Positions 22,641 to 26,692 of a stretch of 64,000 nt of DNA are shown here, piece after piece. How positions within the stretch are numbered: the stretch's first letter is position 1; the number at the start of each line of letters is the position of its first letter. Source of the DNA: Escherichia coli. GTDB taxonomy: Bacteria > Pseudomonadota > Gammaproteobacteria > Enterobacterales > Enterobacteriaceae. The position numbers and the translations under genes are program-made. Location of the stretch: NCBI RefSeq assembly GCF_003334255.1, contig NZ_QOWU01000004.1; one strand, written 5' to 3'. Below the pieces are notes generated by a model. The model worked only from the letters and a program-made list of their open reading frames with translations, did not search any database and was not told where the DNA came from.

Positions 22641-22680
22641 GCCGGACGGCACTATCGTCGTCCGGCCTTTTCCTCTCTTC
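22641..22680 (+). terminator. Rho-independent terminator after tsgA
   Basis: Hairpin gccggacggcactatcgtcgtccggc followed by CTTTTCCTCTCTTCC. Confidence 0.65.
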
Positions 22681-22893: not shown

Positions 22894-25437
22894 ATGAGCA
22901 AAGTCAGACTCGCAATTATCGGTAACGGTATGGTCGGCCATCGCTTTATCGAAGATCTTCTTGATAAATCTGATGCGGCCAACTTTGATATTACCGTTTT
23001 CTGTGAAGAACCGCGCATCGCTTATGACCGCGTACACCTCTCGTCTTACTTCTCTCACCACACCGCCGAAGAGCTGTCGCTGGTGCGCGAAGGCTTCTAC
23101 GAGAAACACGGCATCAAAGTTCTGGTCGGCGAACGCGCTATCACCATCAACCGTCAGGAGAAGGTGATTCACTCCAGCGCCGGACGTACCGTTTTTTATG
23201 ACAAGCTGATCATGGCAACCGGTTCCTACCCGTGGATCCCGCCAATCAAAGGTTCTGATACTCAGGACTGCTTTGTCTATCGCACTATTGAAGACCTCAA
23301 CGCCATTGAATCCTGCGCCCGTCGCAGCAAACGCGGTGCCGTTGTTGGTGGCGGCCTGTTAGGTCTGGAAGCCGCAGGCGCGCTGAAAAACTTAGGTATT
23401 GAAACCCACGTTATCGAATTTGCCCCTATGCTGATGGCAGAACAGCTTGATCAGATGGGCGGCGAGCAGCTGCGTCGCAAAATCGAAAGTATGGGCGTGC
23501 GCGTTCACACCAGCAAAAACACCCTTGAGATTGTGCAGGAAGGTGTTGAAGCGCGTAAAACCATGCGTTTTGCCGACGGCAGCGAACTGGAAGTCGACTT
23601 TATCGTCTTCTCTACCGGTATCCGTCCGCGCGATAAGCTGGCAACCCAGTGTGGTCTGGACGTTGCTCCGCGTGGGGGTATTGTCATTAATGATTCCTGC
23701 CAGACTTCCGATCCGGATATCTACGCCATCGGTGAATGCGCAAGCTGGAACAACCGTGTATTTGGTCTGGTAGCACCTGGCTACAAAATGGCGCAGGTCG
23801 CCGTTGACCATATTCTCGGTAGCGAAAACGCCTTTGAAGGTGCTGACCTTAGCGCCAAGCTGAAACTGCTGGGCGTAGACGTAGGCGGTATTGGTGATGC
23901 GCACGGTCGCACGCCTGGCGCACGTAGCTACGTTTACCTCGACGAAAGTAAAGAGATCTACAAACGCCTGATTGTCAGCGAAGACAACAAAACCCTGCTC
24001 GGTGCGGTACTGGTGGGCGATACCAGCGACTACGGTAACCTGCTGCAACTGGTGCTGAACGCTATCGAACTGCCGGAAAACCCGGATTCCCTGATCCTGC
24101 CAGCACACTCGGGTAGCGGCAAGCCGTCTATCGGTGTTGATAAACTGCCGGACAGCGCGCAAATCTGCTCCTGCTTCGACGTCACCAAAGGTGATCTGAT
24201 TGCTGCCATCAACAAAGGCTGCCACACAGTTGCGGCGCTGAAAGCTGAAACCAAAGCGGGTACTGGCTGCGGTGGCTGTATCCCGCTGGTCACTCAGGTA
24301 CTGAACGCGGAACTGGCGAAACAGGGCATCGAAGTTAACAACAACCTGTGCGAACACTTTGCTTATTCGCGTCAGGAACTGTTCCATTTGATCCGCGTTG
24401 AAGGCATTAAAACCTTCGAAGAACTGCTGGCGAAACACGGCAAAGGCTACGGTTGTGAAGTTTGTAAACCAACCGTCGGTTCGCTGCTGGCCTCCTGCTG
24501 GAACGAATACATTCTGAAGCCGGAACATACTCCGCTGCAGGATTCTAACGACAACTTCCTCGCTAACATCCAGAAAGACGGCACCTACTCGGTGATCCCG
24601 CGTTCTCCGGGCGGTGAAATCACCCCGGAAGGGCTGATGGCGGTAGGTCGTATCGCGCGTGAATTTAATCTCTACACCAAGATCACTGGCTCCCAGCGTC
24701 TGGCGATGTTTGGCGCACAGAAAGACGATCTGCCGGAGATCTGGCGTCAGCTGATTGAAGCCGGCTTCGAAACCGGTCATGCCTATGCGAAAGCACTGCG
24801 TATGGCGAAAACCTGCGTGGGTAGCACCTGGTGCCGCTACGGCGTTGGCGACAGCGTCGGCCTCGGCGTGGAACTGGAAAACCGCTACAAAGGCATCCGT
24901 ACGCCGCACAAAATGAAGTTCGGTGTCTCCGGCTGTACCCGTGAATGTTCAGAAGCTCAGGGTAAAGACGTGGGTATTATCGCCACTGAAAAAGGCTGGA
25001 ACCTGTATGTTTGCGGTAACGGCGGCATGAAACCGCGTCATGCGGATCTGCTGGCGGCGGATATCGATCGCGAAACGCTGATCAAATATCTCGACCGCTT
25101 CATGATGTTCTACATCCGTACTGCCGACAAACTGACGCGTACCGCACCGTGGTTAGAAAACCTCGAAGGCGGCATCGATTACCTGAAAGCAGTGATCATT
25201 GACGACAAACTGGGGCTGAACGCACATCTGGAAGAAGAGATGGCGCGCCTGCGTGAAGCGGTACTGTGTGAGTGGACTGAAACGGTCAATACGCCGTCTG
25301 CGCAGACTCGCTTCAAACACTTCATCAACAGCGACAAGCGTGACCCGAACGTGCAGATGGTGCCAGAGCGCGAACAGCACCGTCCGGCAACGCCGTATGA
25401 ACGTATCCCAGTAACTCTGGTGGAGGACAACGCATGA
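22894..25437 (+). CDS. nirB: NADH-dependent nitrite reductase large subunit NirB (847 aa)
   Basis: ORF track; N-terminal FAD/NAD fold IIGNGMVGHRF; sirohaem/Fe-S Cys cluster in C-terminal half. Confidence 0.97.
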   Translation: MSKVRLAIIGNGMVGHRFIEDLLDKSDAANFDITVFCEEPRIAYDRVHLSSYFSHHTAEELSLVREGFYEKHGIKVLVGERAITINRQEKVIHSSAGRTVFYDKLIMATGSYPWIPPIKGSDTQDCFVYRTIEDLNAIESCARRSKRGAVVGGGLLGLEAAGALKNLGIETHVIEFAPMLMAEQLDQMGGEQLRRKIESMGVRVHTSKNTLEIVQEGVEARKTMRFADGSELEVDFIVFSTGIRPRDKLATQCGLDVAPRGGIVINDSCQTSDPDIYAIGECASWNNRVFGLVAPGYKMAQVAVDHILGSENAFEGADLSAKLKLLGVDVGGIGDAHGRTPGARSYVYLDESKEIYKRLIVSEDNKTLLGAVLVGDTSDYGNLLQLVLNAIELPENPDSLILPAHSGSGKPSIGVDKLPDSAQICSCFDVTKGDLIAAINKGCHTVAALKAETKAGTGCGGCIPLVTQVLNAELAKQGIEVNNNLCEHFAYSRQELFHLIRVEGIKTFEELLAKHGKGYGCEVCKPTVGSLLASCWNEYILKPEHTPLQDSNDNFLANIQKDGTYSVIPRSPGGEITPEGLMAVGRIAREFNLYTKITGSQRLAMFGAQKDDLPEIWRQLIEAGFETGHAYAKALRMAKTCVGSTWCRYGVGDSVGLGVELENRYKGIRTPHKMKFGVSGCTRECSEAQGKDVGIIATEKGWNLYVCGNGGMKPRHADLLAADIDRETLIKYLDRFMMFYIRTADKLTRTAPWLENLEGGIDYLKAVIIDDKLGLNAHLEEEMARLREAVLCEWTETVNTPSAQTRFKHFINSDKRDPNVQMVPEREQHRPATPYERIPVTLVEDNA

Positions 25438-25760
25438 GCCAGTGGAAAGACATCTGCAAAATCGATGACATCCTGCCTGAAACCGGCGTCTGCGCGCTGT
25501 TAGGTGACGAGCAGGTCGCGATTTTCCGCCCGTATCACAGCGATCAGGTGTTTGCGATCAGCAACATCGACCCGTTCTTCGAGTCCAGCGTGCTGTCACG
25601 CGGACTGATTGCGGAACACCAGGGCGAGCTGTGGGTCGCCAGCCCGCTGAAAAAACAGCGTTTTCGCTTAAGCGACGGCTTGTGCATGGAAGACGAACAG
25701 TTTTCCGTCAAACATTACGAAGCGCGAGTGAAAGACGGCGTGGTGCAGCTGCGCGGTTAA
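25434..25760 (+). CDS. nirD: Nitrite reductase small subunit NirD (108 aa, Rieske-like fold)
   Basis: ORF track; MSQWKDICKIDDILPETGVCALLGDEQVAIFRPY...; start overlaps nirB stop. Confidence 0.95.
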   Translation: MSQWKDICKIDDILPETGVCALLGDEQVAIFRPYHSDQVFAISNIDPFFESSVLSRGLIAEHQGELWVASPLKKQRFRLSDGLCMEDEQFSVKHYEARVKDGVVQLRG

Positions 25761-25769
25761 TGTTTTAAC

Positions 25770-25795
25770 GGGAGGCGCAATGCCTCCCCTTTTTG
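25770..25795 (+). terminator. Intra-operon hairpin + T-tract between nirD and nirC (candidate attenuator/partial terminator)
   Basis: gggaggcgcaatgcctccc followed by CTTTTTG; then a ~50-bp T-rich tract before the nirC RBS. Confidence 0.55.
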
Positions 25796-25885
25796 CATGG
25801 TCCTGTAATAATCTTCGGTATATTGCAGGACATTTTTTAAACTTTTTGTTTTATTTTTTGTTTTTATTTTTTAAAGGATAATCAA

Positions 25886-26692
25886 ATGTTTACAGACACT
25901 ATTAATAAGTGTGCGGCTAACGCTGCGCGCATTGCACGCCTGTCGGCAAATAACCCGCTCGGCTTTTGGGTCAGCTCCGCCATGGCGGGCGCGTATGTGG
26001 GTCTTGGGATCATCCTGATTTTCACGCTCGGTAATTTGCTCGATCCATCCGTACGCCCTTTGGTGATGGGCGCGACCTTTGGTATCGCCTTAACGCTGGT
26101 GATTATCGCCGGTTCTGAACTGTTCACCGGACACACCATGTTCCTCACCTTTGGGGTAAAAGCGGGCAGCATCAGCCACGGGCAAATGTGGGCAATCCTG
26201 CCGCAAACCTGGCTGGGTAACCTGGTCGGTTCCGTCTTCGTTGCCATGCTCTATAGCTGGGGCGGCGGTAGCCTGCTGCCGGTAGATACCAGCATCGTTC
26301 ACTCCGTCGCGCTGGCTAAAACCACTGCACCGGCAATGGTACTCTTCTTCAAAGGTGCATTGTGTAACTGGCTGGTTTGCCTGGCAATCTGGATGGCGCT
26401 GCGCACTGAAGGGGCGGCGAAATTTATCGCTATCTGGTGGTGTCTGCTGGCATTTATCGCGTCCGGCTACGAGCACTCTATCGCTAACATGACGCTGTTC
26501 GCGCTCTCCTGGTTCGGCAACCACAGCGAAGCCTACACGCTGGCGGGTATTGGTCATAACCTGCTGTGGGTGACGCTGGGTAATACTTTATCAGGTGCCG
26601 TATTCATGGGATTGGGTTATTGGTATGCTACGCCGAAAGCGAATCGTCCGGTTGCGGACAAATTTAATCAAACTGAAACGGCTGCCGGTTAA
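25886..26692 (+). CDS. nirC: Nitrite transporter NirC (FNT family, 268 aa)
   Basis: ORF track; formate/nitrite transporter-like hydrophobic profile. Confidence 0.95.
   Translation: MFTDTINKCAANAARIARLSANNPLGFWVSSAMAGAYVGLGIILIFTLGNLLDPSVRPLVMGATFGIALTLVIIAGSELFTGHTMFLTFGVKAGSISHGQMWAILPQTWLGNLVGSVFVAMLYSWGGGSLLPVDTSIVHSVALAKTTAPAMVLFFKGALCNWLVCLAIWMALRTEGAAKFIAIWWCLLAFIASGYEHSIANMTLFALSWFGNHSEAYTLAGIGHNLLWVTLGNTLSGAVFMGLGYWYATPKANRPVADKFNQTETAAG

Follow-up and report, generated by a model that had tools for sequence, protein, structure and literature searches.

A long junction in a tightly packed operon

In Escherichia coli the genes of the nir operon lie close together, as the original prediction for this locus had observed: nirB runs 4 bp into nirD, and 18 bp lie between nirC and cysG. 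The nirD-nirC junction, in contrast, is 125 bp long. In order to determine what this gap does, we analysed it within a 64,000-nucleotide stretch of E. coli DNA (the window), to which all positions refer unless another reference is named (Table 1). The gap is identical to the K-12 sequence; in MG1655 (NC_000913.3), nirD lies at 3496551-3496877 and nirC at 3497003-3497809. The 601 bases around it were matched in all 5426 complete E. coli genomes, many at 100%, and 205 bp around the gap show 100% identity in K-12 derivatives and in BL21(DE3).

We favour, with a probability of about 0.78, the reading that the gap is a layered intra-operon region that lowers and separately controls the expression of nirC, and of the promoter-distal cysG, relative to nirBD. 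NirC imports toxic nitrite and NirBD removes it. Keeping the transporter below the reductase, with an independent shut-off under nitrate, protects the cytoplasm. Such a region illustrates clearly that one operon can yield different outputs through the combination of a leaky terminator, RNA processing and a small RNA (sRNA). It is already known in kind, the orthologous Salmonella system having been published in 2020. Our analysis established the anatomy of the gap, the conservation and covariation of its first hairpin, the link of this hairpin to the presence of nirC, and the complementarity of the gap to the sRNA NarS. We conclude that the element is real and functional, that selection acts on it and that it takes part in the control of nirC at several layers.

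Table 1. Features in and around the nirD-nirC gap, in window coordinates
Feature	Position	Strand	Remark
nirB	22894-25437		
nirD	25434-25760		
nirD stop codon TAA	25758-25760	+	9 nt upstream of hairpin 1
Aerobic H-NS ChIP-chip peak (U00096.2 3494898-3495161)	25759-26022		PMC3688515 Table S3
Hairpin 1, GGGAGGC / GCAAT loop / GCCTCCC	25770-25788	+	Conserved intra-operonic terminator stem-loop, from fold, covariation and Salmonella orthology
33-codon ORF (MPPLFAWSC...FFKG)	25780-25881	+	Non-conserved
U-tract 1 (C UUUUU G)	25789-25795	+	Tail of hairpin 1: C25789, T5 at 25790-25794, G25795
Hairpin 2, stem-loop of 11-14 bp	25800-25831	+	Escherichia only; -14.9 kcal/mol, z = -5.11
U6 run	25833-25838	+	One base (A) past hairpin 2; possible second tandem terminator tail, a putative function
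T/U-rich near-repeat, T5 G T4 A T6 G T5 A T6	25843-25872	+	nirC leader; AT-rich as DNA, U-rich leader as RNA
NarS sRNA pairing site AAAGGAUAAUCAAAU	25873-25887	+	Covers nirC AAGGA and the A and U of AUG
nirC, nitrite transporter	25886-26692	+	Cistron modulated by the gap
cysG	26711-28084		

The gap as a whole is predicted to fold with an energy of -40.2 kcal/mol (z = -4.94). Comparison of the gap with Rfam gave sroE as the best match, at chance level (22 bits, threshold 51; E = 0.05), and IsrM was also sub-threshold. A promoter scan of both strands of the gap returned no sigma-70-like site. The hexamers TTGCAT (25793) and TATATT (25819) are 20 nt apart, which is too long a spacing, and an internal nirC promoter is therefore unsupported.

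A terminator-like stem-loop directly follows nirD

The original prediction described a GC hairpin right after the nirD stop codon followed by CTTTTTG, and both elements are present. Hairpin 1 has a 7-bp stem containing 6 G-C pairs and a 5-nt loop, as expected for the stem of an intrinsic terminator, and it is followed by the U-rich tail expected for such a terminator, a C and then U5 (25789-25794). A folding energy calculation, which had been proposed as a check, gave -14.7 kcal/mol (z = -3.55), and none of 200 shuffled sequences was equally stable. In a simple terminator scan hairpin 1 was the second-best site within 7 kb. Terminator-like sites were not enriched over this 7-kb region (12 versus 8.1 ± 2.9 expected), and the evidence for the significance of hairpin 1 must therefore be comparative.

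A d'Aubenton-Carafa-type score was -5.9 for the E. coli element and +14.4 for that of Salmonella, values that serve for relative comparison only, as the formula was used with modern energies and left uncalibrated. The same score was negative for the proven NarS terminator (as sliced) and for the tsgA terminator. By this rough measure, the E. coli tail of five U after a C is short and weaker than the Salmonella tail.

Hairpin 1 is conserved together with nirC

We compared 80 Enterobacteriaceae loci encoding NirD, taking one genome per species. In 51 species nirC follows nirD, and the gap, 67 to 402 bp long, is there mostly unalignable except at both ends. Its 5' end carries a GC-rich hairpin 3-10 nt past the nirD stop codon, followed by a T-run; with few exceptions this hairpin reads GGGAGGCGCAAYGCCTCCC or differs from it by compensated changes, for example CGGGGGYGCAATGCCCCCG. 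Its 3' end carries the Shine-Dalgarno block (A)AGGATAATCA. The middle is hypervariable between genera and filled by unrelated palindromic elements; ERIC-like or REP-like sequences occur at the equivalent place in other genera and are absent there in Escherichia.

Over 41 distinct enterobacterial sequences, the 7-bp stem of hairpin 1 is paired at 96.5%, and 3 of its pairs are altered on both sides. None of 500 shuffles matched the observed covariation, and sliding the partner column of the alignment brought pairing down to 56-67%. A hairpin with a T-run was found after nirD in 41 of the 51 species with nirC, versus 2 of the 29 species without it, in which cysG comes after nirD; one of these two still contains a nirC remnant. 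The hairpin and its T-run are tied to the presence of nirC in these species counts, which are not phylogenetically independent. For many Enterobacteriaceae this terminator hairpin is an ancestral feature, and it accompanies nirC.

The E. coli hairpin is the orthologue of the Salmonella intra-operonic terminator

The same nirD-nirC junction was studied in Salmonella by Wang, Chao, Matera, Gao and Vogel (Wang et al. 2020, NAR; PMC7038943). A stem-loop of -14.9 kcal/mol and a uridine track after the nirD stop codon were named the intra-operonic terminator. Besides a full-length RNA of 5.4 kb and a cysG RNA of 1.4 kb, the study reported RNAs of 2.8 kb for nirBD and 2.5 kb for nirC-cysG, which appear as separate species on northern blots. 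Deletion of the terminator decreased the nirBD RNA and increased the nirC-cysG RNA, and NarS repression of nirC dropped from about 30-fold to about 5-fold. RNase E-dependent processing and 5' ends were observed within the U-rich region, and full repression by NarS required the U-track. The authors could not separate true termination from protection of the 3' end after RNase E cleavage (all PMC7038943).

We compared the window with S. enterica subsp. arizonae L009 and subsp. diarizonae L028, used as stand-ins for S. Typhimurium. The hairpin region reads TAATTAATTTTGGGAGGCGCAACGCCTCCCCTTTTTTG in both subspecies versus TAATGTTTTAACGGGAGGCGCAATGCCTCCCCTTTTTG in the window, and the hairpin with its U-track aligns as GGGAGGCGCAATGCCTCCCCTTTTTG in E. 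coli versus GGGAGGCGCAACGCCTCCCCTTTTTTG in arizonae and diarizonae. Judged from sequence, E. coli hairpin 1 is clearly the orthologue of the Salmonella intra-operonic terminator. The original prediction had read the gap as an internal attenuator or partial terminator uncoupling nirC-cysG from nirBD. Because hairpin 1 is orthologous to the Salmonella element, this reading coincides with an experimentally supported model; it agrees with the Salmonella deletion data (PMC7038943) and with the drop in E. coli coverage analysed below.

The two modules share an element placed directly after the nirD stop codon, with the stem GGGAGGCGCAAYGCCUCCC in which one loop base differs, a U-run after this stem, an untranslated U-rich leader downstream, a NarS target over the nirC Shine-Dalgarno sequence and a separate cysG promoter within the operon. 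They differ in several respects. The gap measures 125 bp in E. coli and about 190-200 bp in Salmonella (81 bp in S. enterica subsp. diarizonae), and the ERIC-like insertion of subsp. arizonae L009 is absent from E. coli. The E. coli tail has one U/T fewer than those of Salmonella and Citrobacter, the Salmonella tail being composed of U6 and a second U7. E. coli alone of the pair has an extra stem-loop with a U6 run, which is confined to Escherichia, and its U-rich tract directly adjoins the NarS site, whereas the two are about 200 nt apart in Salmonella. The deletion and RNase E experiments, and with them all functional data on the terminator, come from Salmonella; from the orthology we infer that termination takes place at E. 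coli hairpin 1 as well.

The gap can also be compared with two broader classes. It shares with leaky internal intrinsic terminators a GC-rich stem and U-tail between cistrons, upstream RNA exceeding downstream RNA, and distal genes supplied by read-through; to this general scheme it would add sRNA targeting, RNase E processing and the effects of Rho and H-NS. With stabilisers of the REP type, such as the iscR REP in the RyhB-controlled iscRSUA operon (cited in PMC7038943), it shares an sRNA acting on the downstream cistron and a stem-loop preserving the upstream RNA. Unlike these elements, hairpins 1 and 2 are single-copy and not dispersed, and hairpin 1 has a terminator-type U-tail.

An exact complement of NarS covers the nirC ribosome-binding site

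The original prediction did not include the NarS target at the nirC ribosome-binding site, nor hairpin 2 with its U6 run, nor the 33-codon ORF. In the K-12 RefSeq record narS (b4813) is annotated after narK. The narS segment ATTTGATTATCCTTT is the exact reverse complement of 25873-25887 (AAAGGATAATCAAAT), with 15 of 15 nt matching, and this is the longest NarS complement in the 64-kb window and the sole one of that length. It spans the nirC Shine-Dalgarno motif AAGGA (25874-25878) and reaches the nirC start at 25886. The core of the target, GGATAATCA, is kept in most nirC-containing species. In Salmonella, a duplex of 14 bp between NarS and nirC covers the Shine-Dalgarno sequence, for which E. 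coli RIL-seq data were cited in support (PMC7038943). RNAduplex runs with full-length NarS against long targets produced meaningless long duplexes; an exact-complement search and a short-seed duplex were used instead.

The middle of the gap carries features specific to Escherichia

Each of the 5426 complete E. coli genomes contains hairpin 2 once, and the compared nirD-nirC gaps of other genera lack it. Identity of hairpin 2 or of the gap with a dispersed repeat (REP/BIME, ERIC) was rejected, as each occurs at a single site in E. coli genomes. Another allele of hairpin 2, GATCCTGCA...TGCAGGATC, is carried by E. albertii and by two lineages related to it; in this allele the loop is unalignable and the stem is kept through changes from G-C to A-U and from U-G to C-G, with 94% stem pairing. 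Together with the U6 run, hairpin 2 may constitute a second, tandem terminator or a 5' protective structure; cleavage in the first U-run would leave it at the 5' end of the resulting RNAs.

The T-rich tract that follows had been described in the original prediction as a near-repeat of about 50 bp before the nirC ribosome-binding site. The repeat is indeed there, TRF detecting 2.4 copies of the 13-bp unit TTTTTGTTTTTAT at 25843-25872, but the whole tract is 40 bp long (25833-25872). It holds the sole 40-mers with at least 75% T in the 64 kb (0.75-0.80 T, versus a window mean of 0.235). In most genera that lack an ERIC insertion the nirC leader is likewise T-rich, with a mean of 0.53 T over positions -52 to -13. 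Among E. coli strains the tract shows indels of ±1 T, and one haplotype, in which the interrupting G is replaced by A, shows a clean allelic series (TTTTTA)n with n = 1, 3, 4, 5, 6, 7 and 8, in which the gap lengths are spaced 6 bp apart between 125 and 161 bp. By analogy with Salmonella, the U-tract is a candidate Hfq or RNase E site in E. coli. Its predicted pairing with the Shine-Dalgarno region is not significant in E. coli (z = -1.47).

DNA curvature, which the original prediction had raised as a possibility, is not supported. The coherence of the T-tracts is 0.28 at 10.5 bp, a value equalled by 64% of random placements, and 0.62-0.73 at 6-6.5 bp. Since the T-tracts recur every 6-6.5 bp and not every 10.5 bp, phased A-tract curvature is not expected.

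These features leave room for a partly neutral gap, in which only hairpin 1 and the NarS/Shine-Dalgarno site would be functional, hairpin 2 being a leftover insertion and the T tract a slippage-prone sequence that is merely unstructured and untranslated. The hypervariability of the middle of the gap between genera (67-402 bp, with unrelated palindromic elements) is consistent with this, as are the confinement of hairpin 2 to Escherichia, the ±1 T indels and the (TTTTTA)n series running from n = 1 to 8, and the z value of -1.47 for pairing between the U-tract and the Shine-Dalgarno sequence. However, T-richness before the nirC Shine-Dalgarno sequence recurs in most ERIC-free genera, and in Salmonella the U-track is required for full NarS repression (PMC7038943). 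Moreover, two divergent Escherichia alleles preserve the stem of hairpin 2, one pair being compensatory, and expanded alleles of the tract are rare, amounting to about 40 of the 5426 E. coli genomes. We regard a partly neutral gap as possible, though on the doubtful side.

Published E. coli data show a loss of RNA across the junction

The original prediction proposed RNA coverage across the junction as a check. In E. coli this coverage is not uniform. DirectRNA-seq of LB-grown cells gave 586 reads in the 800 nt upstream and 24 in the 800 nt downstream of a Rho-termination region whose centre, at MG1655 3497031 (+), is internal to nirC and corresponds to 25914 in the window; with bicyclomycin the counts were 920 and 149, giving a Rho score of 3.95 (p = 6e-12; Adams et al. 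2021, PMC7815308 supplementary file 2). From these reads, coverage falls 24-fold in untreated cells and 6-fold when Rho is inhibited, over 800-nt windows that give no precise placement of the drop. The pattern fits an intrinsic or decay component combined with a Rho component. A Rho-terminated antisense RNA was also reported at MG1655 3496855 (-), corresponding to 25738 (PMC7815308). A C-over-G profile computed for a rut site in early nirC revealed nothing distinctive. The curated Term-seq lists for three aerobic E. coli conditions, in which the operon is poorly expressed, contain no 3' end at MG1655 34968xx-34970xx (PMC7815308). The aerobic/anaerobic expression ratios are 0.030 for nirB, 0.099 for nirD and 0.173 for nirC, cysG being unlisted (Myers et al. 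2013, PMC3688515 Table S12). As these ratios rise from nirB to nirD to nirC, anaerobic induction decays along the operon.

The original prediction had also raised the possibility that the gap serves as a binding platform, and an aerobic H-NS ChIP-chip peak gives this some support. After conversion with a coordinate offset of 1978, calibrated on two FNR sites, the peak extends over the gap and 137 bp into nirC. The peak list is dense, so that about 1 site in 10 would overlap by chance on a rough estimate, and the peak is thus supportive but not decisive. The lists of PMC3688515 contain no anaerobic H-NS peak and no IHF peak over the gap. A match of 9 out of 10 to the H-NS high-affinity motif at 25815-25824 is at chance level (4 found versus 2.45 expected).

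The peak raises the question of whether the gap acts mainly at the DNA level. In such a scenario the tract, 93% A+T, would be a nucleation site for H-NS, possibly curved, which together with Rho would impose polarity into nirC and block antisense transcription, the hairpins being incidental. The aerobic peak over 25759-26022, gone anaerobically, the Rho-termination regions flanking the gap on both strands, at 25914 (+) and 25738 (-), and the position of the tract as the most T-rich stretch of the window all point in this direction. Nevertheless, hairpin 1 covaries across genera and tracks the presence of nirC. In addition, the T-tract phasing of 6-6.5 bp argues against curvature, the motif match is at chance and peaks are numerous in the data set, and the H-NS peak is missing under anaerobic conditions, when the operon is in use. 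We therefore consider it unlikely that the gap acts mainly as DNA.

Alternatively, the gap could be an RNA stability element only. Hairpin 1, and possibly hairpin 2, would then be REP-like barriers against 3'-to-5' exonucleases after RNase E cleavage, and the stoichiometry of the cistrons would result from differential decay. This agrees with the RNase E-dependent processing in the U-rich region of Salmonella, where the authors left the option open (PMC7038943), with the lack of a curated Term-seq 3' end in the aerobic E. coli sets, with the short E. coli U-tail and with the REP-like or ERIC-like hairpins found in the same place in other genera. A pure exonuclease barrier needs no T-run, however, and one directly follows the stem in 41 of the 51 nirC species. 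Deletion in Salmonella increased the downstream nirC-cysG RNA (PMC7038943), and coverage in E. coli drops 6-fold even when Rho is inhibited, although differential decay is also compatible with this last result. On balance, stability as the sole function appears quite unlikely.

A layered model for the control of nirC

We thus return to the favoured reading, that of a layered region setting nirC and cysG apart from nirBD. Hairpin 1 and its U5 tail would act as a leaky intrinsic terminator and, at the same time, as a 3'-end cap shielding the nirBD RNA from exonucleases. RNAs that read through would carry a long, untranslated, U-rich leader, from which cleavage by RNase E may release a nirC-cysG RNA, by analogy with Salmonella. 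Hfq probably binds this leader. NarS, produced from the narK 3' UTR in the presence of nitrate, would pair over 15 nt with the nirC Shine-Dalgarno sequence and start codon and switch off nirC alone. Polarity may be added by Rho, acting on the RNA, and by H-NS, acting on the DNA, at least under aerobic conditions, since this stretch is AT-rich and not translated.

As far as we could find, hairpin 2 and the (TTTTTA)n length polymorphism have no earlier description. The residual novelty is modest and consists of the Escherichia hairpin, the U-tract adjoining the NarS site and the hexanucleotide repeat polymorphism. A more far-reaching proposal would be that the Escherichia gap has been rebuilt into a lineage-varying module, providing tandem termination or a 5' cap and a tract read by H-NS as DNA and by Hfq, RNase E or S1 as RNA, with (TTTTTA)n alleles (n = 1 to 8) altering nirC output or sensitivity to NarS. 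If so, the number of repeats would adjust nitrite uptake in certain E. coli lineages, mostly extra-intestinal or animal ones. We hold this to be very improbable.

The 33-codon ORF is not a gene

That the gap encodes a small protein is hardly credible: the 33-codon ORF starts with an ATG 4 nt behind the Shine-Dalgarno-like GGGAGG, but this ATG (in the loop) and the GGAGG-like sequence (in the stem) are both locked in hairpin 1, Salmonella and most Citrobacter have ACG in place of the ATG, E. albertii-type alleles close the frame after 6 codons, the +1 T alleles of E. coli shift it, and the peptide is a translated poly-T repeat. The ORF is not a gene. We take it to be, probably, the historical 'nirE' of Peakman in 1990 and Harborne in 1992, and a nirE-lacZ fusion was reportedly untranslated in the hands of Harborne et al. 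in 1992.

A predicted ERIC-like stem in the leader of S. enterica subsp. arizonae

In S. enterica subsp. arizonae the U-track and the NarS site are roughly 130 nt apart, and the intervening stretch presumably belongs to an ERIC element, judged by ERIC primer sequences. In the predicted fold (-74 kcal/mol, z = -5.96) this ERIC-like stretch forms one long hairpin. In this predicted fold the U-track lies beside the A-rich Shine-Dalgarno region and is partly paired with it, and in both E. coli and S. enterica subsp. diarizonae the U-rich tract directly adjoins the Shine-Dalgarno sequence. The predicted folding of the ERIC-like stem may explain why deletion of a U-track "about 200 nt away" impaired the action of NarS in Salmonella.

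Palindromic insertions between nirD and nirC

The nirD-nirC gap is an insertion hotspot for unrelated palindromic elements, in which hairpin 1, the conserved stem-loop following nirD, and the Shine-Dalgarno block of nirC stay fixed. In S. enterica subsp. arizonae (locus L009), an ERIC-like element, recognized from primer sequences, separates the U-track after nirD from the Shine-Dalgarno sequence of nirC, and seven other nirD-region loci carry one at the same position. In Citrobacter, REP/BIME-like palindromes fill the middle of the gap. Folding of the L009 element yielded a long hairpin (-74 kcal/mol, z = -5.96), predicted to place the U-track beside the site where the sRNA NarS pairs. In Salmonella, NarS repression requires the U-track although it is about 200 nt distant (PMC7038943); bridging of the two sites by the modelled hairpin may explain this requirement. 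We also observed an ERIC-like stretch (CACCCCAGTCACTTACTTTAGTAAGCTCCTGGGATTCA) inside the annotated narS of K-12, 5' of both the seed and the terminator of NarS.

Coordinates of features at and around the nirD-nirC junction
Feature	Position	Strand	Remarks
Terminator-like hairpin, strong	22641-22666		10 bp with 8 G-C; after tsgA, upstream of the nirB promoter
FNR site	22822		TTGATTTACATCAA
End of Rho-terminated antisense RNA	~25738	-	inside nirD; MG1655 3496855 (PMC7815308)
Hairpin 1	25770-25788		stem starts 9 nt after the nirD stop
Hexanucleotide length polymorphism	25843-25872		nirC leader; loci L094, L093, L092, L091, L002, L088, L090
Promoter-like site, weak	26387-26359	-	within nirC
ERIC-like element	L009:1825-2035		same gap position in L010, L014, L015, L019, L039, L060, L068
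REP/BIME-like palindromes	mid nirD-nirC gap		gcctgataagcgtagcgccatcaggc and similar; L008, L011, L012, L017, L021, L025-L027, L029 (Citrobacter)
narS annotation, K-12	L083:2338-2521		184 nt; outside the window

Variation of the nirC leader and loss of nirC

The nirC leader of E. coli is itself polymorphic in length. Alleles with 1, 3, 4, 5, 6, 7 or 8 copies of TTTTTA bring the gap from 125 to 161 bp in steps of 6 bp. The (TTTTTA)n haplotype, found for example in strains NC101, PSUO2, A4 and 04-00955, has an A in place of the interrupting G of K-12. Expansions are rare, being carried by about 40 of 5426 complete E. coli genomes.

In 29 of 80 Enterobacteriaceae species, among them members of Enterobacter, Kluyvera, Pseudocitrobacter and Lelliottia, nirC is absent and cysG lies 3' of nirD (L023, L030-L037, L042-L044, L046-L048, L050-L053, L055-L059, L062, L067, L071, L077, L078). 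At two of these loci, L023 and L030, a remnant of the 3' end of nirC survives. The terminator-like hairpin and its T-run are almost always missing from nirC-less lineages.

Hairpin 1, nirD translation and antisense transcription

Hairpin 1 begins so close to the nirD stop that ribosomes reaching the end of nirD would extend into it, and termination efficiency might thus depend on nirD translation. The 5' arm of the stem contains a strong Shine-Dalgarno-like GGGAGG, and its 3' arm reads CCUCCC, similar to the anti-Shine-Dalgarno sequence.

For the Rho-terminated antisense RNA whose end lies inside nirD, published read counts upstream/downstream are 262/12 in untreated cells and 405/66 with bicyclomycin (PMC7815308). 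The promoter-like site on the minus strand of nirC could be the source of this RNA.
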